NCBI GenBank assembly: GCA_004431415.1
Contig: QPMI01000626.1
Coordinates: 186,001-250,000 of the forward strand
Length of the DNA stretch: 64,000 nt
Source of the DNA: Cyanophora paradoxa CCMP329
Taxonomy: Eukaryota > Plantae > Glaucophyta
Direction of reading: 5' to 3'
The notes below the pieces were generated by a model. It saw only the letters and a program-made list of their open reading frames with translations, searched no databases and was not told the origin of the DNA. Positions 32,562 through 58,360 of the stretch are shown in pieces (position 1 is the stretch's first letter; the number at the start of each line of letters is the position of its first letter). The position numbers and the translations under genes are program-made.

Positions 32562-33535
32562 CTAGATACGGAGAGCTGACCTGAGCTCGTCCGCGGGGTC
32601 GGGGCCGACCAGGCGGGGGAACGCGAGGTCGAGCCGGCGGAGGCAGGCGGGGACGATGCCCGCGAAAGAGGCGCCGCTCGTGTCGAACTTGAGCGGAGTC
32701 GTGAACCTGGGAGGCTCGAGCTCGAGATCGGGTTCGTTTCCCGCGCCGCCGCCGACGACGCCGATGGAGAGACCCCCGATCTCGAGTGTCCGAAGGCCCG
32801 CCGCGCCGGTTTCCTTGAATTCGAACCCCCAGTCCATTTCCTTGCAAGAGAGCGCGAGGACCAGCGACAGGTGCGTCAGCTCGCTATAGAAGGGGCGGGC
32901 GAGCAGGCGCCGTGCGTCCTCCATGCTCAGAGCGCGCTCCGGCAGCAGGCGGAGTGACCGGAGCGCTTCGTCGCGCAGCCGCGCGAGCCGCTGCCGGTTC
33001 GACTGCGAGTTGTTGGTCGGGAGCCGAATCTTCAGGCGGGGCGGAAGCGGTTCCAAGCCCGAGATTCGTAAGTCGCCGAACTTGGAGTACGTTGAAAGTC
33101 GCCAGCGGCCGAATTCGTAGAACGCTGGCCCCCGCTCGATCTTCTGGACGACAAAGGGGCGCTCGGACAGGTCTGCGAGCTCCCGCTCCAGTTCCCTCAC
33201 GCGTCGCCGCAGCACGTCGCGCGGATTTCCGCGCTTTATGCTCACAGCGACCCTGCGCGCGGATCGATATCGGACCGGAGCGGTCATCTGGAGAGTCGCG
33301 ATTGCAATTGCGAAATTTGATCTGCACGCGCGCGCGCGTACCGCAGGGTGACGTGTCGGGGCAGCGGGCGCTGCAGCGCGACGGATCTCCACCGCTTGTT
33401 GACGGCGCTGGCCCGCGCGCGGTCCTCCGCCGCGAGCGGCAAGAGGCAGAGCCGCAGGAGGTCATCAGGCAGGGGGATGTCAGAGACAGGCCTAGGCTGA
33501 CGCTCGGCTTCGGAATTAATATTCGGGGCTGCCAT
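32562..33535 (-). CDS. F-box protein (frame change near 33290; intron or pseudogene)
   Basis: LPDDLLRLCLLPLAAEDRARASAVNKRWRSV F-box motif; continues in ORF 32562-33392 in a different frame. Confidence 0.65.
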
Positions 33536-33806: not shown

Positions 33807-34712
33807 GCTCGCGGGGTGGACACCCCCACCAATTCCCGCGACCATTTTCAATAAGCACATTTTCAGCATCACGAATCTCAGTCACAAAATCACAAATTCG
33901 CACTGAGCCACATTGTATTTTTCAAACATCTAACTCCTCCTTACTGAAACCAATCACAAAAACCTACATATAATCTTCTCTCTAATCCCTTACCATTTTC
34001 AGTAAGCCTTTATTCCGCCTTCCGATCTCTCAGTAAGGACAGTAAGACCCCTATTTTTACGAAATGTTCCCGATCGTTTCCAAACTGTTTTCAGTTACCC
34101 AAATTGAAAAATCAAGGTGACCCCCACCGATAGCGTAAATCAACATATGAAATGCGTTTATCCCCACTTAAAGATTTCCCGCTATATAGCTATAAAGATG
34201 CCGAGCAATCAACTCCCACTACCCAAAAGTAAGCAATGCACTATCTGCAAAGTAGATAGACCTGCATCGTGTTTTGGTTTGCGTAAATTAAAAACTGGTA
34301 ATGTCGCATTGAATCCAAGATGCATCGAGTGCAACCGCGACTATCACCTTGACCTGTATCACAAAGTCTTAAAAACGCGTCCGAAAATCGAAGTACAATC
34401 GAAGATATGCCCGGATTGCAAGATTGAGAAGCCTGCAAGCGAGTATAATAAAAAGCAAAGTACGAAGGATGGTCTCTACTATAAATGCCGACAGTGTTAT
34501 AGTGAGACTCGGACGAGCTAATTTATGATTTTAAAATGAGATTTATATTTTTTAAAGCAAGTTTGTGCATGAGCAAGCATGCCGAAAATGCCCACCTGCA
34601 CAAACTTGCGCACCCCATCGACAAAGTACGATGATCGACGAAGTACGACGATAGACCACGATTAATCGCAACTGGAACCACTCGCGCCCCGCCCACTATG
34701 CAAGATACATGC
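33807..34712 (+). repeat. Left terminal inverted repeat (906 bp)
   Basis: Begins GCTCGCGGGGTGGACACCCC and ends CAAGATACATGC; reverse complement of 57455-58360. Paired coordinates sum to 92167 at both ends and for the internal ORF, so there is no net indel. Confidence 0.96.
34198..34521 (+). CDS. TIR-encoded tandem C4 zinc-finger protein (left copy)
   Basis: ATG preceded by TATAAAG; two CxxC-K..(K/R)PAS..-CxxC units (CTIC...CIEC and CPDC...CRQC). Confidence 0.75.
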   Translation: MPSNQLPLPKSKQCTICKVDRPASCFGLRKLKTGNVALNPRCIECNRDYHLDLYHKVLKTRPKIEVQSKICPDCKIEKPASEYNKKQSTKDGLYYKCRQCYSETRTS

Positions 34713-34801: not shown

Positions 34802-35065
34802 TTACATAGGAGCACTCACAGTAATTTCGCTTGCCTTCCGAACAGTCCCCCGATTAAACGCTTGCTCTACAATCGCTTCCTTTGTGAGTGGAATTGGAAT
34901 TCCAGCGGCAATACACGATTTAACTTCTTTGTCCACAATCTCATCAATCGCGATTCTTGCCCTATTATGAGCCGCATTATCGATCCAATCCTGAACAGAG
35001 TAGGCACAGTATTCCATTCCCAGTTTTTCAGTCTCAGTTAGAACTACCTGATAGATGTTCGACAT
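34802..35065 (-). CDS. Small phage-like protein, possibly a fibre assembly chaperone
   Basis: 87 aa with QDWIDNAAHNRARIAIDEIV, a motif I recall from small ORFs next to C1q-fibre genes in aquatic phages; lies directly downstream of the C1q gene. Confidence 0.6.
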   Translation of the reverse strand: MSNIYQVVLTETEKLGMEYCAYSVQDWIDNAAHNRARIAIDEIVDKEVKSCIAAGIPIPLTKEAIVEQAFNRGTVRKASEITVSAPM

Positions 35066-35098
35066 TCTTCTACTTTATGCAGCAGAAATTAATTGAAT

Positions 35099-36067
35099 TT
35101 AATCACTACTTATAAGCTCTCCTGTAAAATAATTAAAAGGAGCAACTACGTTATCTCCATAAATTGATCCACTAACATATAAAGTAACATAATCATTTGC
35201 TGCAAGTGAAATTATAACATCGACAGGAATAAGAGGTCTGTATGAAATAGTGGTTGTCGATACAGAATGACTATATGCAACTATTTTTGTGCCGCTGCCG
35301 TTTTTTCGTATCTCTACTTTTGCAGAGTTATTGTCGTTTAGCCCATTCATTGCTCCAAATGCAAATCTATATTTTCCACTTATCGGAGCTGTGAAAACAC
35401 CAGTTGATGTATTCATGCTTGAATGAGTTAAAAATTGAATTCCAAACGCTGTGATAACACCGGTTGTAACACTGGTGCTCAACGCAACACAGAAACGTGG
35501 ATGGTTCGGAGTAGCAAGATAAGAGTTAGTTCCATTAATACTTATTCCATTCCAGGTGAAGGTTCCAGCATTGGTTGGATTTGTGTATGATGATGTAAAT
35601 GTAGAAGCAATCTTTGCCCCGCCTCTCTTGATCTCAAAATTGTCATTTGCACCCACAGTATCAATCGAATTCGTTTTGATTCCACCAGTGGCTGTAATTG
35701 CTCCATTCACACTCAGTCCAGTCCCAATCCATGCCCCACCACTGTAAACTTGAAAAGCCGCCGAATTCCTATCAGCCGGATTAAAAGCCGTTTTGGAATC
35801 CTGTTGACCTTCATATAGATTATCTTTGGTGACCAGCCCCGAAGATATTGCGGGTCGATTCGATACGATCAGTTCAGTAGCTTTGACGATTCCACCAGCC
35901 TTGTCGGCTCTGAGTTCTTTGACTCTGAGTATCGTGTTTTCATTAAAAGAATCGGTTTTCGCTGTCTCAGTCGAAGGGAATGACTCGTTTAGATCATATA
36001 CAGTGTGTTGCACGTTATGGACAGCACTGGCTGATAAGGAAAACACAGGCGTGAACACAGTCGACAT
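35099..36067 (-). CDS. Fibre/receptor-binding protein with C-terminal C1q (TNF-like) domain
   Basis: STGVFTAPISGKYRF, IRKNG, LAANDYV and FTGELI are C1q-domain hallmarks; beta-rich, G/T/S-rich shaft. Confidence 0.85.
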   Translation of the reverse strand: MSTVFTPVFSLSASAVHNVQHTVYDLNESFPSTETAKTDSFNENTILRVKELRADKAGGIVKATELIVSNRPAISSGLVTKDNLYEGQQDSKTAFNPADRNSAAFQVYSGGAWIGTGLSVNGAITATGGIKTNSIDTVGANDNFEIKRGGAKIASTFTSSYTNPTNAGTFTWNGISINGTNSYLATPNHPRFCVALSTSVTTGVITAFGIQFLTHSSMNTSTGVFTAPISGKYRFAFGAMNGLNDNNSAKVEIRKNGSGTKIVAYSHSVSTTTISYRPLIPVDVIISLAANDYVTLYVSGSIYGDNVVAPFNYFTGELISSD

Positions 36068-36087
36068 CTTTTGATTGTTCTTTATTA

Positions 36088-39000
36088 TTACGTGAGAATA
36101 TTATTGTTTTGGAGAGGTCCGACAGCAATCCAATGGAGTTTAAGCGTTCTTTCGTTTTGTGGCACATTCGTATAATTGATCGCCGAATAACAAGTAAATA
36201 TAGCAATCCAGGTGAATTTATTTTTGAAACCAACACGGTTCCCACTCACAAATTCAGCGGAGATATATATGCTATTGGTGAAATCGACACTCGTTAAAAT
36301 AATACTGTTTTCGAGAGTAGCATTAACTATTGGATCACTATAATATGGGGTAGAAAACGTAACGGTTCCTGATGCTGTAAACACTTGCCCTACTGTATAA
36401 ACTTGATTAGGTATAACTACATCCGCTGTCCCTGTTGCACATATGCATTTGCATTTACATAGCTACCGAAATTCGTGAGCAACTCGATGCTGTGATTGTG
36501 AGTAGGTGGCGAAGTAGGTGTGTTTATCAGATCATCATAATTTCCACTTGTAGCCACAGCATGTAGGTTTGGTGTGTTTATCAGATCATCATAATTTCCA
36601 CTTGTAGCCACAGCATGTAGGTTTGGTGTGTTTATCAGATCATCATAATTTCCACTTGTAGCCACAGCATGTAGGTTTGGTGTGTTTATCAGATCATCAT
36701 AATTTCCACTTGTGGCAACAGCATGCAAATTCGGCTTAGTAAATAACCTATCCCATGTCCCATTGAAAGGAAGTGTAGATTCTGATATAATTACACCTTG
36801 ATCAATCCAACGAGGTATATAGCTTGTGAAATCGGGAGGATTTACAAGATCATAGTAATTTCCTGTGTATGCTACACTACTCCAAGTAGGCTTCTCAGTA
36901 ATATCAGTCCATTTACCACTAAATCCCGCCGGGACATCTGTGAGTTCTTTGTAGCTCACCTTTTGTTTTGGTATCGACAGCTCAATGGGCGAGAATGCAC
37001 CCAAAAGCTGATTTTCAGAGGTGAAATACATGAGGTTTTGACTGTTAGGGAAGTCATCCACGACGTTAAAGGTGGAATTCGTGGGTAATTCGAGGCGACT
37101 GATTGGGGTGTTTGGATCTAATACATATTCAGCACCAAGGTGGACAACAGGAAATGTTTGATCATTCGGAGTAGTAACAAAGAAATTAGAAGCATGCACA
37201 TCACCTGCCACAGTTCCACCTGTTAGTGGTAAATAATCATGATCGTGTGAATCAGGTGGATAGGTCGATGGGGGATTGACAATATGCTCCCAGAAATGCT
37301 TGTGAACATTGGGTAATTCAAGTCGACTAAATGGAGTGTTTGGATCTAATACATATTCAGCACCAAGGTGGACAACAGGAAATGTTTGATCATTTGGAGT
37401 GTCCACATAGAAATTCGGAGCATGCACATCACCTGTGAGAGTCCCGCCTGTAAGGGGTAAATAATCCCCAAGAGCCGACGTTAATTCTGTATCTGTTACA
37501 TAATCTTCAAGAATTGCTGCAAGTTCTGTATCGTCTACATAGTTTTTACTTTCGAGGTAATCATCTGTTACCACACCTGAAAGGGTTGTATTGTGTAAGT
37601 TTTTAGCCGCCATTCTCTGATTGACTTCTAAGGCGCCACCTGTTGTTGTTTTAATCCACGCCATCTCGCATTTTCCGTGATCATCTGTGGGTTGTCCCAC
37701 AACAGGAAGATAGTTTACAACTTTCTCCCTTGTGAACACAATCTTAGGTCTTGCTCCATCATATGCGCTTTGATCCGTTACATTTACTTGAATTGCTGCT
37801 GAAAAATCCGCTTCTTGTCCTATTTCTCCTGGGTGATAATTCGTAACATAGATACTGGGGAAAGTATCATTTACTCCTACATTGAAATCGCCACTATACA
37901 CTCCGTTTACGATTGGATCCCTGGGTAATCTTACAGCAAGAGTTCCCACCATCGGTGTGCCTGTTTCACCTGTAAACGACCCATTCAGACTAACATAATG
38001 ATCATTCAAAAATAGCCTTTCAGGTGTATTAATCGATTGGTAAAGTGTGACCCCATTAAAAACATTTCCGATTGCATTCAATTGCGCAAAAACTGGCTGC
38101 TCATCTATTTCCTCCCATGGGTGCCTGTGGTTACTATTGGTAATCTCTGAATAATCATGAGTGTGTTTTCCCGGTGGGAAGGTCGATGGGGGATTTGTGA
38201 TATCTTCCATAAATGCTTATGGGCGAAATCTGTAATATCTGCTTTTGTGTGTTTTTGCTTTGCTAACCAATCTAAAACAACATTCGATGTCGGGTGATTT
38301 GGTAGGTTTGCTTCAATCTTCACAGTGAGATAATCGACTATTACATTACTTCCATTAATATTACTTGCCCATAGGTTACTGCTGTAAATGTTACTTGCAT
38401 AAATGTTACTGCTATAAATATTACTTGTAACTGTAAGGTTTGATGCAATTGTAAGATTAGATGAAATAACACCACCTTTGAGAGACAAGTAATCATGAGT
38501 GTGTGGATCAGGTGGGAAGGTTAATGGTCGATTGGTGATATGCTCCCACAAATGCTCGTGAGAACTGGGTGGATAGGTTAATGGGGCATTGGTGATATGT
38601 TCCCACAAATGCTTGTGAGAATTGGGTAGTTCGATTCGACTAATTGGGGTGTTGTCGCCCAATATAAATTCGGCACCTGTATGCACGACCGGGTTTCTTT
38701 GGATATACATATTTGATGCACCTATTACAGGTGCTATTATGGGCACATCCGAATTAACGAGATTGCAAGTGATGGAGAAAATGGTTTTAGGGGCGAATAG
38801 ATTGCAATCAAAGGTCACAGTAGCTGGATCAATAGTAGGATCGACGTTTGAACAGATCTGAAACATCCACCCACCCACACAGTTGCAATTTAGATTTCGA
38901 AAGACTGTTCCCGCCATTGCATCCACATAGCCAATCCCATTTGCTATGTCATATATGTGACCAAACTCGTAACCAAAAATGTCATTCCACAGGTTGGAAG

Positions 39001-39136
39001 CCATAGCTCCCATCACATACCCTTTTAGATCTACTATCAGGTCATTGGATTCACTGGGTATATTGGCATGGGTTATATAAAAATTATTATCCAATACCGC
39101 ATTCTTTATTGTCGTTTCTACTATGGGTTCAGTCAT
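36088..39136 (-). CDS. Large phage-tail-fibre-like protein (about 1015 aa; two -1 homopolymer frameshifts near 38207 and 36430)
   Basis: ORFs 38105-39136, 36417-38210 and 36088-36384 join on adding one G each (AHKHLW-EDITNPP; QQG-TADVVIP). Contains HxH-W..IT.P repeats, YLPLTGGTLTG, SN pentapeptide repeats, four ATSGNYDDL repeats and a C-terminal gp53/H-lectin-like head (GTVTF...P.V.AT...LHWIAVG). Confidence 0.8.
36518..36735 (-). repeat. 54-bp coding tandem repeat, about 4 copies (PNLHAVATSGNYDDLINT)
   Basis: Unit tgtttatcagatcatcataatttccacttgtagccacagcatgtaggtttggtg repeated almost exactly. Confidence 0.95.
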
Positions 39137-39173
39137 TATACTCTATTATGGAATACTACAAAAATTAAGGTTG

Positions 39174-42100
39174 TTACATAACGTTTGGAACATGTTCATA
39201 TATTCTCCCTTCTCGCTGTGCCATTTCCGCCATAAAGTCTCTATCATTGTTCATCGTTTGCTCTGCCAATTCTTGTGCTCGTGATTTTTTGGGTGCTGCC
39301 CTATTTGCTGGTGGTCGGTCAGTCCTCACAACACTAAGACCATGCCCTCGGCTGATCTCACCTCTAAGCCCACATCTCCTTCGGCTGTTTGGGTCACATT
39401 AAGCTCTGGTGTTGAGTATTTATTACCTGCTCCTGCAATGGTTCTGTCTATGCAAGCACAACATAAAGCTCGGAATTTGTATGCAAGCACAAGCCAAGAG
39501 CACCGAGAATCGGCAAGAGAATCATAAGCACTAACGTTCCTGGATCTGTTCCCGGTGCCCCGACTGGATTTGTAGGATTCGTGGGATTATTAGGTGGTGT
39601 GTTTGGATCTGGATTAGTTGTAGGGGGATCTTGTGAATCGGGATCTGGGTTAGGCTGGTTCGGATTTGGATCATTTGGTGGCGGCTCTGTCGACCCTGCT
39701 TATGAGGTCGGCGCTGTGTATGCATTTGCAAACACGATGGGAGCCGTCGCTGGATTTCCTGTGGAGGATCCTGAGATTGCACCATAGGTATCTGCGAGAT
39801 ACTTGTATAATTCCTGTGTCACAGGTGGATTGCTCACAGATCGACACACCCAAATATTGCATGTGGTGTCATAGACTGTGTCCCTGATAAAAGGCGGTAG
39901 AGCCGTCCCACTGAATGACTCAAAGAGTCCATTTCGCGATAGCAACCTATGTCCTGTATCACAATTTCCACCCTCAAAATATTTGGTAGCCGAAATCGCA
40001 CCTTGCACATAAATATTGCATGTCGAATGCAATCCAATGTTATTTAGGTTAGGAGTGTATCTGTCATCAAGCCGGACAGTGCACACCCATGGGGAAGCGG
40101 TTTTTATATATTTCTTATCGCCTGCTGTGATCACATCAGTGTTTGGGTGGCTTTCGATTTGGGTAGCAATAGACTCATATTTGTAAGAGTAATAAACTAA
40201 GAGACCATCTGTGGAGGATGTAAAATAAAAGAAGTCTCTCATGAAGTCTGTGGATCCAAAGAAGTCAGCATTGGTCGATGTTAGGGTGACTCTGGGATAG
40301 CTCATGTTGACAGTCTCAGAAGGATATGGAATATATGAGGTGTAATTACGATTGAAAAGATAATAGTGAAATCCATCTGAGACATTCGAGTGAGTGGGCA
40401 AGGTGACTGTTAAGGTCTTACTGCGATTCTCAAACGTGTTCTGTATGACAATGTTGCAAGTATTAATATATCGAGAATCGAAAAAGTAATTATTTGTAAC
40501 TCGATTATCGATCAGAGTCGCATTGGTTCCATTAAATACGAAATTCTGCCCATTTATTCTCGTAGTATGAATGTCGGTAACATCGAGAGGATACCTTATT
40601 TTTAATCGGTCTTCGGGGTCAAATCGCGGAATAGTTCCTGTTGCCTTCCAACTGATAGTAAAGGGAGGAGCAAGGGACACTGCTGGGATAACAGAGAGAT
40701 TAAATTTCGAAAAATACAACCCAACAGGGTATGATGTCAGAGCATATGTCACTGTTGCATTTCCTACAAGTGTAAAGCCGGTGGTTGTTATGTTAGTTGC
40801 AACAAATGGGGAGTAGCCGGCTGGTGCATTTTGAAGTGATGTAGCTGACCCATCATTGACCACATACAAATTCGTGTCTGTTATTTCAATAGTAGGAGGG
40901 GAAACAAATGGTGTCTCAAATGTGAAATTAAAATTCGCTGGAACCCTGCAAGATATCTATATGTTGTTGCTGATATCTCGGATGCCTGGAATACTTTGCT
41001 TCCACTCCGCACTACATTACTTGTGTCTTTCACATTGTGGTATGAGATGCTGGGAGTTGGGGAGAGCACCAACGAAATAGCATCTGGTAAATCAGACTTT
41101 GTTATATACAGTTCTCTGAGAAACTCCTTTCTAAAAGGGGCGGTCAGTTCTCCAATAGTAGCCGATGATCCTGCGACCACAATATTACAGGTGTTTGCAC
41201 TCAAAGAGTAAACTGTGTTCCACCTTAAAGAATTCGCCCCAAGATCGAAATTCTGTGAGAAGGGCACGATATTGCTACCTTGTAAATCTCGGTAAACCTT
41301 TACTCTGGGTTTGCTATCGAATACAGGGCTAATGTAATTGATGTTAAGAGTGAAACTAATAGTAGCTTCGGAACTCAATGAGTTGTTTCGGATGATAAGT
41401 AAATTGTATGTCTCGTTAATGACAAACGAAACCTGAAACCCTGTGGAGGTGACATTTTGGATAAATGCTTTATTAGATTCATTATTGTTATAGATAGGAT
41501 TATAATAAGTAGTGTGATCCACCAATGAAACAGTGGGTATATTCGTCTCGAAACCTGTGACACCCAACTGATCCCAAGTGAATGTATATGTAGGTTTGCC
41601 TACATAAGCGACATAGACCCCATTTGCGAGCTGCTGAGGGTATCCCTCGACAGTGTAGGTCTCAGTTTGCGAAACCGAGCGGGAAAGGTTACTATTATAG
41701 TCGGTGTAGCTGATCAGTGCATTATCACTGGTGAGAATCTGATTAGGTCGGAGTGAGTGATTAAATGGAAGGATTAAATTGGAGGCAAACATGGAAACTC
41801 CATGCACCTCTGACCATCTCAGATTCGAGAGACCAATTCGGTATGCGTTATCAATAGAAGGGTAAATGTTCCTTTTCGATAGAATATGGGCTAAGGTAAT
41901 TGCAAGCGCTCCATCTGCTGCAAACAGAGCATTAATTTCGGATTGCAAAGCGGCGATTTCGGTAGTGTGGGTCGTGAGGGTTCCATCCTGGCTGGAATCT
42001 TTGGTGTTCTTGCTCCTCTCGAACTCCAAAAACGCCTTTACGATGTCCTTGCCCAAAAGATCGTTTATATTGTCTCTGGTAATGTGAACATGGTCTTTTC

Positions 42101-42896
42101 TCAGTGCCTGTTTCTCTGTGGTAAAAGCCGGAATTTCTTCTGCAAATGATATAGTCGTTTTATCAAGTGCTAAGGATCTCACATTCGGAGCATTGGCGCC
42201 AATTATATCGACAACGTTCCCATTTTCGACAATTTCTAAGGTCGGTTTCGCGGGGTCTAATGTGAAAACACCCTCTGTTATCTGGGGAACCGATTCGCTC
42301 TTCTGAATCACAAAGGATTCGATGTTTAGGTTACAGGTTGCGACATTGGTGGCGAAAAACGACTCGGAGTTGAGCGAGTTTACATTTAGGGTATCCGTAG
42401 TGATGTTACTTGCTGTAATGTTACTCGTCGTTAGATTACCTGCTGAGAGATCATGGACGACCTCTACCTTTGTTTTCCGTGTGGATACTCCCGCTATAAG
42501 TGTGCTATTATCCACGATTCTCATAGCTGCATTTTGGAAACCGCTCTCATCTTGAATGAAGAAGTTTAAGCGACCTCTATCGAATGCTTTCGGGATGTTC
42601 CTACGATTATATCGCACCGTTTTCGGTAGCTGGCGGGTTGCCTGAATGCTGGCGACTCTGTTTCGTTCGTTATCATCAAGTAAAAAGTCGATTCCAAGTT
42701 TATGATCCCCTTTCTCGACGTTCATTAACTGCAAAGCTGCGGGTCTGCTCGGTGTTCCACTGACTGGATCTTCGCGGTCTGCATTGAAGTTTATTTTCAG
42801 AGACCCGCGAATTTCAGTGTTTACCTGATCAGTGTCCTCTATCTGAGTGGTCGAATTAATAACTCGTGCATCTGGTCGCGGATTCAGGAACGACAT
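39174..42896 (-). CDS. Large fibre/spike-like structural protein (frameshift near 40944; in-frame TAA at 39700; probable further shift near 39539)
   Basis: True start MSFLNPRP at 42896. Contains NIYPSIDNAYRIG..RW and NIVP..NFDLG..RW fibre motifs, a short coiled coil and two gp53-like segments (TFETPF..PP, N.T.TGF). One added G joins it to ORF 39700-40869; a Pro/Asn-rich frame continues past the TAA. Extent below 39700 is uncertain. Confidence 0.7.
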
Positions 42897-42939: not shown

Positions 42940-44433
42940 ATGAAGACCGTTCTCGCTTTGAGTGGAGGGGGGTCGCGTGGAATAATCGAGGCTGCTATAC
43001 TGGCACAGATTGAAGCCCAAACCGGTAAACGAATCCAACAGCTATTCGACTGCTTTGCGGGAACATCCACAGGTGGATTAATCGCGCTCCTATTGAATAT
43101 CAAGGGAACCGATGGCGCCCCTAAATATACAGCCACTGATATTCTGGCGCTATACAAAGCAAAGCTACCGCTGATTTTCGCGAATCCACGAGTGCTTACA
43201 TCGATTGTACAGCGCCCAAAGTACGAAGCAACTAACTTAGAAGCGGTGGCTCTCGAACTCTGCGGCTCAGCGACCATGGCGGATCTCTATAAACCCACCA
43301 TCGTGACTGCGTTCGACACGGTCTTAATGTCCCCCGTTTTTATTTCAAGCAACGATGAAGATATTAATGGGATGCTTGTGCGCGATGCTGCAAGGGCTAC
43401 CTCGGCTGCTCCGACCTATTTCGAGCCGAAACAAGTCACAGTCGCCGGAAGAACATACTGTTTAATTGATGGTTGCATGAGTGGAAATAATTCGCCCGGG
43501 GTTTGCGGCTACACATTCGCCCGCACTTTATTCGGAAACTCTTGCGAGGAGGAGCTTATCGTGGTCTCGATTACGGCGGGTCACGTCCAAGACTCTGATA
43601 AGGCGACATCTGGATATTCGTACGACACTATGAAAAATTGGGGGATCGTGCAATGGATGCTAAGCGCCACAGGATCGCCAATTCTCAGCATGTTCTTAGA
43701 GTCGAGTGATCTAAACGCCCACGTAAAGCTACTGGAACTTTTACCCAGAAACGATGATCAGAATTACGATCGCTACTATAAGCTGAGCGTTCCTTTACCG
43801 AAAGATAAAATGACCCTCGATACTATCACAACGACGCACTTGCAATATTTAGAAACGGAAGCGCTCGCCTTTGTTTCCGCACAGCAAACGTATTTTAATG
43901 CGATGTATTCAGTGCTGACAATGAATTTATCAGAGGGCGACGTTCCCATAATTAATCTGTCCGGGTGCACAGATGTAAGCGCACCCCCGGAGTCCAACTG
44001 GGTGCCGCTCGATAATAGCGCTTTTATTGCGGAATTCGGGACAGCCTCCAATGCCCGCTGGTCGAATGCTACGGGGTGGGTGGGATTTACCAACCCGCCG
44101 CAAGGTAGTAGGTCGGGAGGCAATTATTTACGCATCGATTTTCCGCGTCTGTTTATGCTTTCCTCTATAAAAATGAAGCCGGCTGCGAATGGAAACTACA
44201 TTAAAACGTTTGAGATCGATTACCAATTAACTCCGGGAGTGTCGGCACTTGTCACATACACAGAAGCCGGCGCGACGAGAGTGTTTACCAATGCAAATCA
44301 AATAGCCGGAAGTGCCGATCCTGACGAACATTTCTTAGCGAACCCGAGATCTGTGAGAACCCTCGTAATCTGGGTGCTCACGACGAACGTAGCTTCGGCA
44401 TGCCGAATAGATTTCGAGGGCTACTATGTGTGA
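42940..44433 (+). CDS. Patatin-like phospholipase fused to a C-terminal discoidin (F5/8 type C)-like domain
   Basis: LSGGGSRG oxyanion loop, GTSTG nucleophile, ATSAAPTYF and IDG(C); C-terminus YLRIDF...YIKTFEIDY...P..VRTL.I...CRIDFEG fits the FA58C fold. Confidence 0.92.
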   Translation: MKTVLALSGGGSRGIIEAAILAQIEAQTGKRIQQLFDCFAGTSTGGLIALLLNIKGTDGAPKYTATDILALYKAKLPLIFANPRVLTSIVQRPKYEATNLEAVALELCGSATMADLYKPTIVTAFDTVLMSPVFISSNDEDINGMLVRDAARATSAAPTYFEPKQVTVAGRTYCLIDGCMSGNNSPGVCGYTFARTLFGNSCEEELIVVSITAGHVQDSDKATSGYSYDTMKNWGIVQWMLSATGSPILSMFLESSDLNAHVKLLELLPRNDDQNYDRYYKLSVPLPKDKMTLDTITTTHLQYLETEALAFVSAQQTYFNAMYSVLTMNLSEGDVPIINLSGCTDVSAPPESNWVPLDNSAFIAEFGTASNARWSNATGWVGFTNPPQGSRSGGNYLRIDFPRLFMLSSIKMKPAANGNYIKTFEIDYQLTPGVSALVTYTEAGATRVFTNANQIAGSADPDEHFLANPRSVRTLVIWVLTTNVASACRIDFEGYYV

Positions 44434-44439
44434 CAGCGC

Positions 44440-45285
44440 TTAATCGGTGATCACTTCGAGCTGGAACGAGTATGAGAGACCGTTTATATCTGCAACAGAG
44501 CCCCGCCATTTTCGAAGCGAAATTGTGAGACGATCTAAATCGAGTTGCGATGTGACATTTACGAAAGGGATGCTTGCGCTCGGTTCGTGGTAAAAGGAAT
44601 ATCTACCAAAGTCCGAGTTCATCTGAATTCGCAATAGATAGGAGTCGTCGAAATTGTTCTGTCTCCCAGTAACCGCTGCGAATTTGGTAAACGGGCGGAG
44701 CTCTTCGATATCAAGGTAAATATATGGAATTGCATTAAAGTCGACCATTTTCGGGCATATAATCGCGTAGCGACTGGGGTAATCTCTGAGTGGAACCGGC
44801 ACTGGTTCTGGTGTGCTGGCGTAAACCACTCCGGGTTCTATGCCGAGACAGTCACAGAACTCCTGGTCTGAGGACTCTAATGTAAAAGGGCTATTCGGAG
44901 ATGAGAACACGAAGCGGTTCGTAGACAGAGCGAGAGAATAGGAAACCGGGAAGAGACCGAGAGGATTAAAAGAACCGCCTGAAAAACCGAGTAAAGCATC
45001 ACTGTTTAAAGCTCTCTCTTTCGGATATCGTTCGTTATCAGCATCGACGTAATAATAATCGTTTACGCTGGGAATCGGTGCTATCATTTTGGATGCGGGG
45101 ATTACTGTGGGCTCTTCGTTCAAAAGCGTTATAGTTATTGTCTGATCGGGCGGAACAACATAAGAGCTATTGGGAATCTCAGCTGATAGCACACGAAATC
45201 GCCTTACATTATTAAGGCGCGTTTTCAAGTGCAGCACGCCGTTTTCAAGGTCTCTACTGTCGCAATTTATTGTTATTCTTTTCAT
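44440..45285 (-). CDS. Minor capsid (penton-like) protein 1
   Basis: I..DSRD...L..V....L.SAEIPNS.Y; YIYLDIEEL; LDRLTISLR...G...DINGL..SF.LE, the pattern of PLV/NCLDV single-jelly-roll pentons; next to the MCP. Confidence 0.8.
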   Translation of the reverse strand: MKRITINCDSRDLENGVLHLKTRLNNVRRFRVLSAEIPNSSYVVPPDQTITITLLNEEPTVIPASKMIAPIPSVNDYYYVDADNERYPKERALNSDALLGFSGGSFNPLGLFPVSYSLALSTNRFVFSSPNSPFTLESSDQEFCDCLGIEPGVVYASTPEPVPVPLRDYPSRYAIICPKMVDFNAIPYIYLDIEELRPFTKFAAVTGRQNNFDDSYLLRIQMNSDFGRYSFYHEPSASIPFVNVTSQLDLDRLTISLRKWRGSVADINGLSYSFQLEVITD

Positions 45286-45301
45286 AATCTATTATAGTAA
45301 G

Positions 45302-46226
45302 ATGAAAGAATACCTGAGCTTTTCGAGCGATGATCGCGATGAGGAGTTTACTCAGCCAAACCAGTATGTAGTGACATTACCCCGTCGCTATGACAACGTA
45401 AAATCGGTGCGCCTGGTGCAGGCAACGGTTCCCAATGTTCTTTCGACCGTGACAAACGATATAGACGCCACTGGTGCAACCATCGAGCGCATGGAACTCT
45501 ATTTCTCGGTCACAGCTTCGGATTCCGGATTCGTGACCATCACAATCCCCAAAGGATTTTACACCAAAGACGACCTTGCCGCAAAAGTCACAGAAAGACT
45601 CGAAGCAGCTCGCCTTTCAGATTTCGGTGGAAAATATATTAAATGCCGCTATAATACTACTTCAAAGATCTATGAGTTTTTCAGTGATAGTAACTTTTGG
45701 TTCAAGTTCTCCAAAGCTTCCCTGAAACACTCAGAAAATCCAGTAATCGCAAAGCAATCGCTAAGAAACTCGCAATATTCGGTTTCAAAGATATTCAGCT
45801 ATATGTTTACGAGACATTTACCCCTTTTGCAAGCGATACATTCCTTGTGTTTAATCCTGGGACGGGAACTGTGACACTCAATCGACGCATTCGCGGCTAT
45901 ACTCGTGGAGATGAGACCCCGGCGGCGATGATCTGGCTATATATTGATGAATTTGCGCCGTTTATTCGCTCAGTCAACAAGCACGTCGATGGTTATTTCA
46001 TGCGCATTCCAATCCCACAGGAACTCGAACATGGTGATATCTACCACTTCGACACGTCCACTACGGTGCCTCTCATTCGTGAATTCCGCGAATTAAAATC
46101 TTTCGACCGCCTCACGATTAAACTCATCGACCATGATGGCGCTCTCTTAGATTTCGGGTTTGGGCGCATTATTTCACTTTTGAAATCGAAACCTACGACG
46201 CACCGCCCGAAATGAATTTCTATTGA
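45302..46226 (+). CDS. Minor capsid (penton-like) protein 2 (frameshifts near 45751 and 46162)
   Basis: SSDDRD...PNQYVVTLPRRYDNVKSVRL..A.VPN; GFYT; IWLYIDEF; FDRLTIKLIDHDG.LLDF; the restored end reads GAHYFTFEIETY...NFY*. Confidence 0.78.
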
Positions 46227-46273: not shown

Positions 46274-47586
46274 ATGGAGACTAACAGCCAATTCCAGCGC
46301 CCAACGCTGAAATCTATGCTCACCACCGATGACTACAAGGATTATTTCCTAAACAAGTCGCTGGTCATTGGAACGTCCTCTGGCACTAAGCCACTTCGAG
46401 TTCTGGTCGCCCCCGACACTGAGCCACCCAGCGCTCTCGGCAACCGAGTTGTCTTCAAAATCCCCGCTACCATTTCCTGAATGGTCTCGCGCTGCAACTC
46501 GATCTTAACCCGATCACCCTCACTGATCTCACGAATGGTGTCGCTGGAACTACTGGCTACCTTCGCGTTATTGGATCGCTAATTAAGCGCATTGAAATCT
46601 CTCACGCTTCATTCCGCTATGTTGTCCCAGAGGATTTCGTCACCCAGTATTTTCTACTGATGACCGAACAGGGCGAACTCGATAAGAAACTTCGCTATGT
46701 GGGTGGTCTTGTCGGAACCGCTGGTAACACTGTCGGTGGAACCTACGAAATCGATTTACCCTCTCCTTTCGAGAAGGCGATGTTCCCACTTTGCGCTCTG
46801 AACTCTGAGATCGTGGTCGAAATCGAATTCAAGGCGATTGGTGATGGTATCATTGAGGATGTAAACAATGTTGGCAATATTTCGGTCGTAAACAGTGGTG
46901 CTTCCCTTCAAGTGCTGAAACCCCGCATTATCTGCAAGGTCGTAAATGCCGATGAGGCGGTTGTATCTGAGACCATTGCCCGTGTTAAATCGACTGGTAT
47001 CGCGATCCCCTACAACGAAATCGGTTTCCTCCACACAGATTTCCAGCCGACCGCCTCCGGTTCGCGAGTCAATCTCTCGCAACTCACAGGTGCGGGTCTC
47101 ATCCACACTCTCGTATTCTCTGTGCGCCAAAACGCGAAGACGAAGGTGAACAACGGAACTCTCTCGGTTCTGGCTCCTCGTGCACTCCGAACCAACGCTG
47201 TGAACTTCTATGTGGAACTCAACAATAACCGCCTTTACTCGAATACTTCGCTTCCTCTCATGATTGCCGCGACCGAACTTCAAGATAAATATAATTCGGC
47301 GATCTTTACCGAGAGCACAAGCTACCCCGCTCTCACTGGCATTTACTTCGGTGCTGGAAACGGAAAGGCGTCGCTTCTCAACCAAGAGAACACGGGCTAC
47401 ATCGATGCCACAGGCACATCGGCGTTCGATCTGGTCTTCGAATTCAATGGTGTCACAGCCGGTGGAGTCGGTAATGAGGAGTGGTATGCGGGTGCCGCTT
47501 ATCAGAAGATGCAAATTCAGTGCATTGCCCTCGCTCATAATATCATGATAATCGGAGCTGATGGTATTCGCAGAGTAAGTAGCTAA
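46274..47586 (+). CDS. Major capsid protein, double jelly-roll (frameshift in the C-run at 46462-46465)
   Basis: Adding one C gives GNRVVFKIPRYHFLNGLALQLDL...LIKRIEI, continuing into ORF 46660-47586 (FPLCALNSEIVVEIEF); about 437 aa; lies between the pentons and the ATPase. Confidence 0.85.
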
Positions 47587-47644: not shown

Positions 47645-48510
47645 ATGCAAAAAGGGACAACGCCCATGGATCTCGAAGAATGGAACCCGAAACAGAGGGT
47701 GAAACTTCCCGCACGATTTCTCCTATTGGCGAAAACCAATTGTGGTAAATCGGTATTCTTAAAGTGGCTGATCAAAGAACTCGAAGACCAGATCTCATAC
47801 GTTCTGGTCTTTTGTCCAACGAGTTTCAACGGTTTCTGGGGACAAATTACAGACGAAGTGCATGACACCTGGAAACCGGAATATGTAGAGTCGATCATAG
47901 AAGCCCGCAAAAAGCCATCATTGCGGGTAAGAAACCAAAGAATATTCTCATCGTGCTCGACGATTGTTTGGAGTCCGGAACTATCGATCTTTCGCGCGAT
48001 CATTTGCTAAATAAATTGATGGCGCAAGGTCGTCATACGTTTTGTTCCGTGGCTCTAATATCGCAGAAACTAACAAAGCTTTCAACGATCATTCGCAGCA
48101 ATGCGGAGTATATCATATTCCTAAGCTGGTCAAACATGCGAGAGTTTGAAGCATATCACGAAGAGTTCGGGAACATGGATAAAGAGAGTTTTAAGCGCAT
48201 GTTCCAAGAATTCTGTCATAGCTACCAAGCGATCATTCACGATAATACCGGGTATTCTGTGCGATGGTGGGTCGAAAAAGCCGATATGATCGATGACCAT
48301 CCGTTTACTAAATTCCACAAGCGGGCGGCTTTTGAAGAAAAGAAGCGCAAACAACAAGAGGAGCAAGCGACAAAACCGCCGCCTGTCAAAGATTCGACAA
48401 CTGTCTGTCGAACTTTATCCAAATTTGAGCGTGAGCTTGAAGGTATCCCCAAACTTTCGCAAATTTCGCCTAAGAAAAAGAAAATGTTAATCAAATGTAA
48501 GAGAAGATAA
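47645..48510 (+). CDS. A32/FtsK-like genome-packaging ATPase (frameshift in the A-run at 47909-47913)
   Basis: Walker A AKTNCGKS, Walker B ILIVLDD after the frame is restored, GRH motif, SQ sensor and IRSN. Confidence 0.92.
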
Positions 48511-50498: not shown

Positions 50499-53400
50499 AT
50501 GGATACAATGTCTCAAATTATAATTAGACCGGGTCAAGTTCGTCATGATTGGCATGAGAGCGAATCAATCTTCTATTTACTCAAATACTACCATGAATTG
50601 GCAGTAGGACTTAAAACTTTCGGCCAAGCATACGAGGTGTTCTTCTATAAGACACCACCAACCCAGGAACAGAAAAGACTAATCCAAATATTTGATGATC
50701 TTGGCGGCAGTATCGATGATGCCTTTATAACTGTTCATGAGGTCGTGATCGATGGGGACGAAGGTGTCGAAGATGACGGAGCCGGTGCTATCCCTGGCAA
50801 TCGCTATGCGTTTCTGGATGAGGAGCTTACGGACAGCATGCGATGCACCGCGATTATGAGCAAATTCACAGACTACACATTAAATCCAAACGCGTCTGAG
50901 TTCGAAGATATTATTGAGCTTCCCAAATCATCGACATCTAACGCTTGCGGCTACGATATGATCATCTCCACATGGGGAGCGTCCATTAAGAAGTGTCAGG
51001 AGGCGCCAAAACCGCGATATACTGACTTAACTATGTCGTACGACGGTCTCTATAAATTCTTTCACGGTCGTGAACGCACACCTGGCGACTCTCTGGCTCT
51101 CACGCTCCGCCACATCGAGAAATTCTGTAAGAGAATTCAGACAGGCTTCCGCGTCTTTGATGTCGACGGAAAGTTAATACACAAATTCGCGGCGGAATCA
51201 ATTAACAAAAACATCTTTCCCCGCAATATTCACTTTATGATTCACAACAAGCACATCTATATATTCAACGATAACATCAAGTCGCTCGAAATGCGCATGG
51301 CAAAGATGGAGGTCGAAGAGCTCGATAATCATGTTCCTAAGTCGAACTCTTCGTTAGCACTCTATAAAATTCCGACGTGTCTTACTCACGATATCTTCGC
51401 GCACACATCCAAGGATTTGTTAAAGATCACGCAACTTAAACTATCGCCCGACGAGCGCAGTTTCATCCGCATTCTGTATACTGGGCGCGAAGGTCTGGAA
51501 GGTCTTCTATTTACGTTCCTGAAAATGCGATATGAACCCGCAGTGAAGCTAACACCATCGAAACAGATCGACAGCATCACATTCAAAGCTAATGGCTCGA
51601 TGTTCTCTATCAAAGATCCACGCACAACAGACCACTTTATTGAGCAAGATTTCGAAACAGAGGAGTATTATAATAAGGTCTGTGAAATCGGGAAGGGATT
51701 CCGCGAGTCGCTTCTAAATGCGACGAATATCTCACATTACAGCCCGAACATGCGCGAAATTCTCACGCACTACAAGCGATCCGCACTAAGCGGCTTTTTC
51801 TATAAGCCGAACCCGAAAGCTACCTACACAGCTGTCGATATGGCGAAGTGCTACCCTTCGATACTGAAAGGCATGCAATATCTTCCGAAATACAATGTGT
51901 TTGATGACTTCGTTCCCTTTAAAGCGGGAAGCGATATTCTCGAATACGCGATCTACTACGTGCGTGTCGTTGCGTTTGAGAGAGAGCAAGCGACTTTCGC
52001 CGACGATGAGGATGTAGATTATGATGCCGCCATGTCTCGCAAGATTGATGGAATCGAAATTATTCTGGATCGCGCATTTTCCGTGAGTGGTCGCTGTTAT
52101 AATTTCATGACAGGCTACACTCTCTCCATGCACTGGGCGGACGTAAAGGACAAGATAGAGATTATCGCGGTCGCGGAGCCTTCGCATTTGGTGCCCAATA
52201 TGTCGATCGCTGAGATGAAGAAAGTGCTTTCAAGTGACATTCAAACCACGGACAAGAAACACATTTTAGTGAAAGAGATCGGAATGCTCGGCAAATTCCA
52301 AGACTCGCAAACATCCACGAAAATGTTCTACAACCGTGCCGAGGCTGAGAGGTTCGCCCAAGAATGCGGAGGAACAGTAGAGGTGTTTACTTTCAATCCT
52401 AAGAATTCGAAACGTGTCAAAACTCTTAGCGAATTCGAAGGTCACATCTATTTCGTTAAGATCAGCTCCCACCGCGAGCTCGTTAACGGATTCCTTCCTA
52501 TCCACTTTCATATTTACGATCGTAACCGCGCTAATATGTTTGCGCAATACAAGCGCCTGACAGCGCGCGGGCACAAGGTTGCCGGGATCAGAACGGACTG
52601 TCTTTATATCGAAGGTTCATGGACAAGTAAGAAAGAGTTCGACCGAAATGCGTTTGAGAACATGGGCAAATTCAGCTATATTCCCGGGAAAAGATGCCCT
52701 GAGAATGCACTCCGCCCACCACGGGGTGTAACTCTCGAATTTCAGGATCCCGAGACACTCATTAACCGGTTCTCGCTGAGGGACGAATTTAATCCGGAGT
52801 GCTTTAATTGGGTTGCGAAGCTCCATAATCGTATGCTTGTCCTTGCTGACATGCCCGGAAGTGGAAAGTCGACACTCGGTATTAACTGTTTCGCATCTCA
52901 AAAGTCAAATTGCTTAGTCATTTGCCCCTATAACAAACAGTGCGCAGAGCTAAGGGACTCTCTCAAAGTCCGCGGAATCGAGAATATTACCGTTCGCACT
53001 TTGTATAATGTTCTCGGGATCCGTGTCTCAAATGATCAGACCTACGAAGAGGCTATGAGCGAAAAAGACCAGAGGGCGTTCGTATCTGAGTTCAGCCACA
53101 TTATGTTCGACGAGATATTTGCGTATTCCGTAAAAGATCTCGCTAAGATCAAGTCGTTTATCGATCGCTATCCGGATATCAAATATTTGGCTAATGGCGA
53201 TACCTATCAGAACGAACCGATTAATGATGAGCTATCGGTTTCTGATCGCAAGGGCTACTATAAGCGCGCTGTGCAGAGCATGTTCCCTAACGTCCTGAGT
53301 CTACGCATTAACAAGCGGCACAAGAAGGAGACAGACCGTGAATTAATTCGGGCGATTAAAGAGGATCTCTTCGAGAACGGACTGGAAGCCGCACAGATTA

Positions 53401-54206
53401 TCTCGAAATACGGGTTGCCGACAATTAATGATCTAAGCGCCATTCCCGACGGCTACTTTGGCATCGCTTACAGAAACGAAATGACCTTAGCCTATAACAA
53501 ACTGATGCACGATAGACGAAAAGTAAATATTGCAACCGTAGAGGTCAACGGCATCAAATTCTACAAGGGTTTGGAGGTCGTTTGTCGCAGGTATCTACGC
53601 ATTTCGCGGTCTGAGGGTGAGTCTATTAACGCATACACGAATTACACCTATCGAATCACCAAAATCACCAAGCAAATGGTCACATTAACTGACGTTTTCG
53701 ATGGCGTCACGTTCGAGGTTCCGTGCGCGATGTTAGAACATTTTTCTCTCCCTTATGCAGGAACAGGTCATTCAACGCAAGGTCTCACACTTGATTCGGG
53801 CATTGTCATTTGTGAGGCTACGTTCCGCTATACCACTCGCGAATGGTTCTATACCGCGCTCACTCGTAACCGCGATCTGTCTACTGTGCTGATTTATACA
53901 CCGATTCACAAGTTCCAAGGAAAGAGTGACTACATCGAGTATCTGAAAGGGAAGATCCGCGGTTACAAATGCCAGGATCAGCGTGCCGGGCGCGATTTCG
54001 ATGAGGCGGATTATATTACGCCGGAGTGGATATTAGAGCGCAAGAAGCAACAGAAGGGCGCCTGTGCGCTCTGTTCCCTTCCTATTCCGACTGAGCCACA
54101 AGATCCGAATTACAAGCTCGTCGTGGATCGCATAAACAACAGGCGCCCACATCTTAAAGACAATTGCCAGCTCGTGCATCACGGGTGCAATTGCAGCAAA
54201 AAATAA
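50499..54206 (+). CDS. pPolB-like DNA polymerase fused to an SF1 (RecD/Pif1/Dda-like) helicase and a C-terminal HNH-like domain
   Basis: PolB motif A DMAKCYPSIL, degenerate motif B K...V..IGMLGK, motif C GIRTDC; helicase MPGSGKST, FDE, GD.YQN.PI, H.TQG.T and YTALTR; C-terminal CALC...DRINN...H..DN...CN. The start may be 50499 or 50508. Confidence 0.88.
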   Translation: MDTMSQIIIRPGQVRHDWHESESIFYLLKYYHELAVGLKTFGQAYEVFFYKTPPTQEQKRLIQIFDDLGGSIDDAFITVHEVVIDGDEGVEDDGAGAIPGNRYAFLDEELTDSMRCTAIMSKFTDYTLNPNASEFEDIIELPKSSTSNACGYDMIISTWGASIKKCQEAPKPRYTDLTMSYDGLYKFFHGRERTPGDSLALTLRHIEKFCKRIQTGFRVFDVDGKLIHKFAAESINKNIFPRNIHFMIHNKHIYIFNDNIKSLEMRMAKMEVEELDNHVPKSNSSLALYKIPTCLTHDIFAHTSKDLLKITQLKLSPDERSFIRILYTGREGLEGLLFTFLKMRYEPAVKLTPSKQIDSITFKANGSMFSIKDPRTTDHFIEQDFETEEYYNKVCEIGKGFRESLLNATNISHYSPNMREILTHYKRSALSGFFYKPNPKATYTAVDMAKCYPSILKGMQYLPKYNVFDDFVPFKAGSDILEYAIYYVRVVAFEREQATFADDEDVDYDAAMSRKIDGIEIILDRAFSVSGRCYNFMTGYTLSMHWADVKDKIEIIAVAEPSHLVPNMSIAEMKKVLSSDIQTTDKKHILVKEIGMLGKFQDSQTSTKMFYNRAEAERFAQECGGTVEVFTFNPKNSKRVKTLSEFEGHIYFVKISSHRELVNGFLPIHFHIYDRNRANMFAQYKRLTARGHKVAGIRTDCLYIEGSWTSKKEFDRNAFENMGKFSYIPGKRCPENALRPPRGVTLEFQDPETLINRFSLRDEFNPECFNWVAKLHNRMLVLADMPGSGKSTLGINCFASQKSNCLVICPYNKQCAELRDSLKVRGIENITVRTLYNVLGIRVSNDQTYEEAMSEKDQRAFVSEFSHIMFDEIFAYSVKDLAKIKSFIDRYPDIKYLANGDTYQNEPINDELSVSDRKGYYKRAVQSMFPNVLSLRINKRHKKETDRELIRAIKEDLFENGLEAAQIISKYGLPTINDLSAIPDGYFGIAYRNEMTLAYNKLMHDRRKVNIATVEVNGIKFYKGLEVVCRRYLRISRSEGESINAYTNYTYRITKITKQMVTLTDVFDGVTFEVPCAMLEHFSLPYAGTGHSTQGLTLDSGIVICEATFRYTTREWFYTALTRNRDLSTVLIYTPIHKFQGKSDYIEYLKGKIRGYKCQDQRAGRDFDEADYITPEWILERKKQQKGACALCSLPIPTEPQDPNYKLVVDRINNRRPHLKDNCQLVHHGCNCSKK

Positions 54207-54398: not shown

Positions 54399-55603
54399 AT
54401 GTATGACCCAAAAACAGGTTTTAAGAACCCATCGGCATTGTACGAAGAGCTGAGAAAAGAGGACAAGACCCTCACACTGAAAGAAGTGCAAGATGTCGCA
54501 GCGAAACAAGAATTTATGCAGATCAACAAGAAGCCCCCGCACCGACCCAAACAGCTTTTATTCCCATCACAGCCCCGCCGTGGTGCTATCAAGCGGATCT
54601 CATCTTTTATCTCTCATATGGCAATTATAATTCCGGCTACATTGCAGTCCTTACTCTCATCGAGATGACAAGCCGAAAAGCATATGCCAAGAAGTTAAAG
54701 AATAAGGAGGGCGCAAGTGTTGCCGCCGCTTTTGCGGAGATGCTCACAGAGCTCCCGGCTCCGATGATTCGATTGGAGACAGATAACGGTTCGGAATTCA
54801 TCGCGAAGGAGTTTCAGGAGGTCGTAAAAAATAATGGAATAGAGCACCGCTTTAAACAGGTCGGAGATCACACTTCTCTGGGAATAATGAATCGCTTTCA
54901 TTTGACCTTAAAAACGATGATAAACAATTACTGTGTCGCTTATAATACAGTTCGATTCATGGACAAATTGGACGACTTCGTTTTCAATTATAATAACACC
55001 ATTCACAGAACCATAGGAATGAAACCCGCAGATGTTAAGCTTTCTGATATGGAGCGGATCCGAGCGGCTATTATTTCAAAGAAGAACACAATCGTAAAGG
55101 ATATATTCAGCGACTTTAAGCCGGGTCTCCACGTCCGTGTATTATTGCCAAGATCAAAGTTTGATAAAGGAGCAACACAAAGGTATAGCAGAGAGGTCTA
55201 CAAAATTGCGGGAAGGAGAGGAAACGCGATAGAGGTGCAAGATGCAGCGGGGAACGTAATGCCGAAGCTTTTTAAGCCGCACGAATTGCAAATCATTACA
55301 GAGGTCGAAGCTGTGGTGGAGCCATCAGGCAACGCAATCAAAGCAGCCGAAATAGAAGCCGCTTCTATCCGGCAGGTTCAAAAAGAAGGCATAGATGTCG
55401 CCGCAAGTGTTCCAAAAGGCGCATTATTGGAAGATCGCGCAGAAAAGACAAAGAGGGCGCTGAGAGAGCTCGCTAAATTAACGATCGCGGGAACTGAGAA
55501 GCTCTCAGAGGTAAACAGTCAGCGGTGGTATAAATCATTCAAGAATCAGAGCGCAAGCTACACAGCCCCTACTACGCGCATTCTTCGGTCTTCTCGTTCA
55601 TAA
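54399..55603 (+). CDS. Retroviral-type (rve) integrase, Polinton c-INT-like (frameshift near 54549; the start may extend to 54225)
   Basis: YDPK.GF N-terminus; restored YQADLI...LTLIEMTSRKAYA; TDNGSEF; GIMNRFHLTLK; YNNTIHRTIGMKP; SH3-like tail G.HVR...FDKG...YS.EVY.I. Confidence 0.92.
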
Positions 55604-57454: not shown

Positions 57455-58360
57455 GCATGTATCTTGCATAGTGGGCGGGGCGCGAGTGGTTCCAGTTGCG
57501 ATTAATCGTGGTCTATCGTCGTACTTCGTCGATCATCGTACTTTGTCGATGGGGTGCGCAAGTTTGTGCAGGTGGGCATTTTCGGCATGCTTGCTCATGC
57601 ACAAACTTGCTTTAAAAAATATAAATCTCATTTTAAAATCATAAATTAGCTCGTCCGAGTCTCACTATAACACTGTCGGCATTTATAGTAGAGACCATCC
57701 TTCGTACTTTGCTTTTTATTATACTCGCTTGCAGGCTTCTCAATCTTGCAATCCGGGCATATCTTCGATTGTACTTCGATTTTCGGACGCGTTTTTAAGA
57801 CTTTGTGATACAGGTCAAGGTGATAGTCGCGGTTGCACTCGATGCATCTTGGATTCAATGCGACATTACCAGTTTTTAATTTACGCAAACCAAAACACGA
57901 TGCAGGTCTATCTACTTTGCAGATAGTGCATTGCTTACTTTTGGGTAGTGGGAGTTGATTGCTCGGCATCTTTATAGCTATATAGCGGGAAATCTTTAAG
58001 TGGGGATAAACGCATTTCATATGTTGATTTACGCTATCGGTGGGGGTCACCTTGATTTTTCAATTTGGGTAACTGAAAACAGTTTGGAAACGATCGGGAA
58101 CATTTCGTAAAAATAGGGGTCTTACTGTCCTTACTGAGAGATCGGAAGGCGGAATAAAGGCTTACTGAAAATGGTAAGGGATTAGAGAGAAGATTATATG
58201 TAGGTTTTTGTGATTGGTTTCAGTAAGGAGGAGTTAGATGTTTGAAAAATACAATGTGGCTCAGTGCGAATTTGTGATTTTGTGACTGAGATTCGTGATG
58301 CTGAAAATGTGCTTATTGAAAATGGTCGCGGGAATTGGTGGGGGTGTCCACCCCGCGAGC
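57455..58360 (-). repeat. Right terminal inverted repeat (906 bp)
   Basis: Reverse complement of 33807-34712; ends ...CCACCCCGCGAGC. Confidence 0.96.
57646..57969 (-). CDS. TIR-encoded tandem C4 zinc-finger protein (right copy)
   Basis: Identical translation to 34198-34521. Confidence 0.75.
   Translation of the reverse strand: MPSNQLPLPKSKQCTICKVDRPASCFGLRKLKTGNVALNPRCIECNRDYHLDLYHKVLKTRPKIEVQSKICPDCKIEKPASEYNKKQSTKDGLYYKCRQCYSETRTS

Follow-up and report, generated by a model that had tools for sequence, protein, structure and literature searches.

A predicted fibre module with a C1q tip that is likely exchanged among copies of a polinton-like virus integrated in Cyanophora paradoxa

How does a virus integrated in a eukaryotic genome come to encode bacteriophage-style fibres, and do all of its copies carry the same fibre tip? 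This question is raised by a stretch of 64,000 nucleotides (nt) from Cyanophora paradoxa CCMP329 (contig QPMI01000626.1, positions 186,001 to 250,000; hereafter the window, whose first letter is position 1), in which a GC-rich eukaryotic genome holds an endogenous polinton-like virus (PLV) of 24,554 bp at 33807-58360. Three predicted fibre genes of phage-type repeats (A, B and C, all on the minus strand) lie in this element together with a small gene, D. We read the region, with a probability of about 0.68, as the host-attachment module of the integrated PLV, in which the C1q tip that ends gene C is likely to recognise a receptor on the cell surface and to be exchanged among copies. The region is composed of the following features.

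34802..35065, minus strand: gene D, 87 amino acids (aa), behind the C1q head, deeply covered among copies
35099..36067, minus strand: gene C, an intact open reading frame (ORF) of 322 aa, with an N-terminal part (about aa 1-122) common to copies and a C-terminal C1q head
35099..35516, minus strand: the C1q head, about aa 185-322, the last ~140 aa of gene C
36088..39136, minus strand: gene B, ~1015 aa in total, with its frame broken twice, near 38215 and 36440
39174..39699, minus strand: continuing the frame of gene A past its stop, a Pro/Asn-rich stretch, then a hydrophobic helix and a Cys-rich tail
39700..42896, minus strand: gene A, ~1064 aa across one frame break near 40945

The C1q head named in the original prediction lies in gene C and was borne out by Pfam PF00386, which scored 25.1 bits against a cut-off of 23.7. 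A profile built from 35 sequences matched 38 PDB sequences, 37 of which are named C1q-family proteins and one uncharacterised, and the structural model of the head matched cerebellin-1 (Cbln1) by Foldseek (expectation value E 2e-7, template modelling score TM 0.62). Gene C thus ends in a C1q domain, on the basis of both the profile threshold and the C1q/TNF jelly-roll fold. In the BFVD viral structure library, the top matches of the head were phage C1q proteins. The third-position GC content of the head was 0.22, compared with 0.42 in the N-terminal part of the gene; a single-sequence model of the whole of gene C was unusable, with a predicted local distance difference test score (pLDDT) of 37.

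The main result came from a comparison of the genomic copies, among which the original prediction had proposed to look for hypervariability: the C1q head stands at single-copy depth between multi-copy sides. The region is contained in 20 listed public runs of one organism, seven of which were compared. In four runs, the depth of the head (35151-35412) was 30.6, 21.5, 53.7 and 45.5, against 35.7, 20.9, 79.2 and 60.7 in the host flank, that is, 0.68-1.03 of the flank in all four, and the head was covered by one 612-nt contig without differences. The depth bins of the N-terminal part of gene C and of gene D, by contrast with this dip, were in the thousands. A further comparison of four runs displayed the same dip and the same head contig.

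Eight different contig joints bypass the head, all departing from the shaft at aa 126-184; six of them end just upstream of the start of gene D and two inside it. Their depths were approximately 1, 1, 1, 2, 2, 2, 5-6 and 10 times that of the head and were stable between runs, with individual joints not seen in every run, and the long conserved contigs reached 21-50 times the head depth. One 640-nt contig fits one side with 148 letters and the other with 74 (by matching depth), and carries about 418 other letters in place of the 436 skipped, which makes it a replacement. Elsewhere, the copies are mostly 90-100% alike. Because the head stands at single-copy depth between multi-copy sides and is bypassed by eight joints, the copies likely carry different heads, and we infer that, of some 20-50 copies, about one has the head of the window, the others bearing different heads on one shaft.

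Gene D extends this picture to phages. It matches two annotated freshwater phages at 47-49% identity, in both of which the gene upstream ends in a C1q-like manner as read by eye. After clustering at 90%, at least 4,514 relatives of gene D were counted; it falls in no Pfam family, and its neighbours in the Atlas are viral. A C1q-like head was located directly upstream of the gene D homologue in 66 of 73 IMG/VR loci, with 34 head clusters under 70% identity (5 of 78 loci were dropped as too near the contig end, and the head profile was partly built from these same loci). In a metagenomic set drawn from a collection other than IMG/VR, with 11 of 80 loci dropped, such a head was directly upstream in 57 of 69 loci, compared with 26 of 402 other ORFs there. 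A conserved D following highly diverse heads in phages is the same pattern as that seen among the PLV copies. Among the neighbours of the D loci (38 + 78 proteins scanned) were T4 neck, tail-sheath stabiliser, SU10 adaptor, phage capsid, tail and endolysin families, and no giant-virus hallmarks were seen. Gene D is a member of an unnamed phage family found behind C1q-head genes, and likely serves the head as an assembly partner or tip accessory; this large family is thereby flagged as a likely partner of C1q-type receptor-binding proteins. Among structures, gene D had no solved relative. Assignment of gene D to VMAP-M4 or Lep was rejected, the Pfam and NCBIfam matches being weak and far below cut-off. 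One T4-like phage (locus L119:7366-11100) carries four tandem C1q-head genes near a D homologue, a neck protein and a tail-sheath stabiliser.

Gene B displayed the clearest similarity to annotated phage fibres. Its pieces (39136-38108, 38216-36420 and 36462-36091) span 1015 aa and contain HxH/PTR-like repeats, the motif YLPLTGG, tandem 18-aa ATSGxYxDL repeats and a last segment of 124 aa. By tblastn, its middle matched 29 phage records, the best being a 'tail fiber protein' of phiRSL1 (45.8% over 147 aa, E 6e-25), and its first part matched 297 phage records, the best 15 of which were mostly tail or minor tail proteins. It also matched PHROG tail families and, weakly, the PDB collar fibre 9d93 (E 0.0025). 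These phage matches are restricted to the repeats and never cover 80% of the query; Pfam PTR gave no match on gene B, and the last 124 aa had no phage match and no convincing similarity to the lectin-like segment of gene A. On these comparisons, gene B is significantly similar to annotated phage tail or fibre proteins and would be a fibre gene of that type. Joints between its duplicated blocks suggest repeat-mediated length variants among copies.

Gene A was assembled from a piece of 671 aa (42896-40884) and another in a different frame (40956-39703), giving 1064 aa when ended at the stop (39700) and 1240 aa when extended to 39174. It contains two P..N..LG....RW repeats of tailspike-stalk type, SN-rich and TCN repeats, and two weak H-lectin-like segments. 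No PHROG match and no Pfam match above threshold was obtained. A phmmer search of 1.84 billion proteins returned 21 matches, all confined to the two P..N..LG....RW repeats; the End_tail_spike profile is listed in 19 of these 21 homologues and passes its cut-off in 13. Gene A would accordingly be fibre-like through these two short repeats only. The H-lectin-like and gp53-like heads of the original prediction were not confirmed at threshold: H_lectin fell below its cut-off of 24 on two internal segments of gene A (14.7-15.2 bits, E 0.024-0.035), neither H-lectin nor gp53 had a Pfam match in the last 124 aa of gene B, and otherwise there were only Atlas leads (0.84). The stretch at 39174-39699, in which a 19-aa hydrophobic helix (Kyte-Doolittle hydropathy, KD, 2.44) separates the Pro/Asn-rich stalk from the Cys-rich tail, may encode a single-pass membrane protein, which would be surprising in a PLV, or else belong to gene A as its tail.

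The interval 34802-42896, which besides the three fibre genes holds gene D and the possible membrane-protein ORF, makes up 33.0% of the element, in agreement with the predicted third, and the coding parts of A, B and C make up 29.4%. The common orientation of the three genes and the intact 322-aa gene C stood as predicted, with the lengths of A and B obtained only across frame breaks. All of the named motifs were present above chance, none of 500 shuffles reaching the observed counts (HxH 10, against a shuffle mean of 2.15 and maximum of 7; YL[PS]LxGG 3; A[TY][ST]GxYxDL 5; P..N..(Y/F).(I/L)G....RW 2). The motifs are divided among the three genes rather than common to all: 9 of the 10 HxH and all YLPLTGG and ATSG repeats are in gene B, the P..RW repeat is in A and C1q is in C.

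Broken frames are also found in the penton-like, capsid, ATPase and integrase genes of the element. Contigs from four public runs differ from the window by one letter at at least seven places, six of seven at short C or G runs, including the break in gene A and those in the capsid genes; this comparison covered the best 12 of 29 matches, with the gene B and ATPase breaks outside them. Because of these one-letter differences, mostly at short C or G runs, the frame breaks are likely assembly errors, and a dead provirus was rejected as their cause. Assembly error has been given as a cause of frame breaks in such elements (PMC10120064, accessible part).

Collectively, these results can be arranged into a mechanistic model. 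A, B and C would act as virion attachment proteins, as homology and the finding of Ltf in Gezel-14T particles suggest; the fibres would trimerise and sit on capsid vertices, with the N-terminal ~120-180 aa of gene C anchoring the protein. Gene C is likely a modular receptor-binding protein whose heads would be swapped when copies recombine within the shaft and either in the spacer ahead of gene D or in that gene itself. Gene D would fold or cap the head and be kept during swaps, and probably came with the head from a tailed phage, directly or via another virus. The target would be a eukaryotic host surface, and the patatin of the element may aid entry. The prediction that the apparatus is built from phage parts holds for B, through tblastn to phage tail proteins, and for C with D; for A it holds weakly, through repeat-level matches. 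A more far-reaching version, in which the host genome stores a library of heads on dozens of virus copies, the phage-derived two-gene cassette (C1q adhesin and 87-aa capping or folding partner) having been imported whole and its tips reshuffled such that each reactivated copy aims at a different surface, whether host strain or giant viruses, is put forward here as a tentative and rather doubtful idea.

Several points weigh against a host-attachment module with exchanged tips. The sequence between the ends of all eight joints was not recovered, and may consist of other, diverged versions of the C1q head, of different folds or in part of deletions. Contig depth, when summed, counts copies only crudely, and the four depth runs share this insertion site, probably representing one strain rather than independent populations. 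The structural model of the head reached a moderate pLDDT of 55.5, whole gene C had no homologue by word search or tblastn, giant-virus proteins also occur among the C1q head matches in the viral structure library, and the gene D tree does not place the window gene, which sits on a long unsupported branch. Gene A, moreover, had no tblastn match in 50,697 phage records and is followed, behind its stop, by the membrane-anchor-like stretch. It could be that the fibres are real but that gene C varies because silent integrated copies decay or undergo neutral gene conversion, with no functional repertoire of heads. All copies are endogenous, and both the repeat-mediated length variants of gene B and a second variable patch, in an ORF of the terminal inverted repeats (TIRs), would fit this. 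However, the reading frame of the window's head is unbroken and its fold can be recognised, the drop in depth is sharp-edged and limited to the head, the joints start within one part of the shaft (aa 126-184) and finish around the stop, with one class in about 10 copies, and the copies are mostly near-identical elsewhere; we therefore consider decay or conversion unlikely.

The in-frame stalk, helix and Cys-rich tail, together with the lack of a phage tblastn match, could alternatively mean that gene A encodes a membrane-anchored surface protein rather than a capsid fibre, the stop at 39700 being peculiar to this copy. This appears rather improbable, as no signal peptide was seen by eye, no variant was found at the stop among the best 40 of 580 matches, and the repeats match the phage tailspike-stalk profile in 19 of the 21 homologues. 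The original prediction had further suggested that the apparatus perhaps attaches to a helper giant virus as well as to the host; on this view, the variable C1q head would follow changes in the giant-virus surface, for hitch-hiking entry. The three fibre-like genes differ and might each have a target of its own, there are PLVs that depend on giant viruses (10.1101/2025.10.09.676808, accessible part), and a hypervariable head is what an arms race could produce, whichever variable partner is involved. Yet no support for a helper giant virus emerged from this analysis, and fibre-bearing PLVs are inferred to enter the host on their own in the accessible parts of PMC12220804 and 10.1101/2022.07.28.501842; dual binding is accordingly, in our estimate, very unlikely, and attachment to a host surface through an exchanged C1q tip is the reading we retain.

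Bacteriophage-like fibres in PLVs have already been described (Bulzu et al. 2025, PMC12220804), including, in the accessible material, a PTR-PTR-H_lectin protein in a glaucophyte PLV and patatin-discoidin fusions, and the Ltf fibre of Gezel-14T was found in particles (bioRxiv 10.1101/2022.07.28.501842). As far as these sources are accessible, their fibres are likewise encoded by long modular genes with phage tail repeats, and their gene set resembles that of the window. In contrast to the fibres of PMC12220804, no Peptidase_S74 chaperone was found in the window element by Pfam scan. C1q is absent from the text and two supplements of PMC12220804, whose large tables may hold C1q annotations, and head exchange among copies is not described in the accessible parts of that paper or of the Gezel-14T report. 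In the literature we found neither C1q in PLVs or virophages nor head swapping in PLVs, with the limit that subscription papers and bioRxiv supplements may hold C1q annotations. Phage-like fibres in PLVs are thus known; what is new here is the likely head exchange among copies and the proposed two-gene phage cassette of C1q head and D.

A close parallel lies in phage metaviromic islands (PMC3909814, PMC7468147; accessible parts), in which a C1q head is hypervariable and the N-terminal part conserved, with variants co-existing, beside tail-fibre genes; the marine phage C1q proteins of PMC3909814 share the conserved-N/variable-C1q pattern of gene C. Unlike these, the window case is in a eukaryotic virus, its variants likely co-exist as integrated copies in one host genome, and it includes the 87-aa partner, which goes unmentioned in the accessible text of both papers. 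Giant-virus surface-adhesion islands, according to the accessible part of PMC13620141, are similarly variable and rich in adhesion proteins that likely stem from bacteria or phages, but there whole islands differ between virus genomes, whereas in the window a single domain would be swapped between integrated copies. Functional difference among many related PLV copies in a protist genome has been raised as an open question (PMC10120064, accessible part), and a swapped adhesin domain on an otherwise common virus offers a concrete place to test it within one genome.

The remainder of the element supports its identification as a PLV. It has a GC content of 0.45, against 0.66 in host DNA, is flanked on both sides by 906-bp inverted repeats that match perfectly and by a 6-bp target-site duplication, and so has the size (15-40 kb) and both end features of a PLV. 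Its other features are listed here.

33807..34712: left TIR, 906 bp, a perfect match to 57455-58360, holding a 124-aa Cys-rich ORF
34147..34521 (plus strand) and 57646..58020 (minus strand): the 124-aa Cys-rich ORF in both TIRs
42940..44433, plus strand: patatin-like phospholipase
44440..46215: two divergent penton (minor capsid)-like genes, the second broken, with a weak DUF5901 match
46274..47586, plus strand: probable major capsid protein (MCP), start approximate, broken near 46460
47645..48510, plus strand: A32-type packaging ATPase, in two frames (Pox_A32 E 4e-5, above cut-off)
50499..54206, plus strand: 1235-aa fusion with degenerate PolB motifs, superfamily 1 (SF1) helicase and C-terminal HNH-like motifs
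54399..55603, plus strand: rve integrase, in two frames (Pfam E 1e-13)
57455..58360: right TIR

A PLV is likewise indicated by the A32-type packaging ATPase and by an integrase with a replication gene, here the rve integrase and the SF1 helicase/PolB-like fusion, in which the helicase matches are below cut-off and PolB-like motifs stand beside them. Motif C of this PolB lacks the first Asp of the canonical motif. The C-terminal domain of the patatin, which we take to be discoidin-like by eye, had no Pfam match. The capsid and penton-like genes are putative, having been assigned by size and position: the MCP candidate had no family match and a single detected homologue (61% identity) among 5.8 billion clusters searched. 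With two divergent penton-like genes, the capsid might have two types of vertex that carry different fibres. A maturation cysteine protease had no match among the 24 element ORFs scanned, and the element does not belong with Mavericks/Polintons or virophages in the strict sense. No related PLV loci were found when viral and metagenome contigs were scanned for the MCP, or in a scan for the ATPase, and in a tblastn comparison of 14 window proteins with 190 fetched loci, which would miss divergent PLVs, only gene B matched.

A fusion of protein-primed DNA polymerase (pDNAP), SF1 helicase and HNH has been described for PLVs (PMC5499653). From the accessible part of that source, the inactivated pDNAP-SF1 helicase-HNH fusion, rve integrase and A32 ATPase of PLVs and Tlr1 are also present in the window element; its MCP, in contrast, has one detected homologue, so the lineage is not placed.

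Some minor observations concern the element and its setting. The middle of the 124-aa TIR ORF is at low depth and skipped by joints, forming a second variable patch among copies, and tandem 31-bp repeats (56848-57154) lie just inside the right TIR. The element also encodes a two-domain DUF5710 protein (55654-55956, plus strand) and an S-adenosylmethionine decarboxylase (55982-56374, minus strand, Pfam E 1e-11). The host flanks are GC-rich and repeat-rich, and profile matches there were limited to pieces of photolyase, GUCD1 and F-box proteins (127 of 162 flank ORFs scanned). A near-perfect palindrome of ~5.7 kb at 3453-9143 in the host flank represents a duplication or an assembly artefact, and a host F-box ORF (33284-33535, minus strand) lies 270 bp from the left insertion end.

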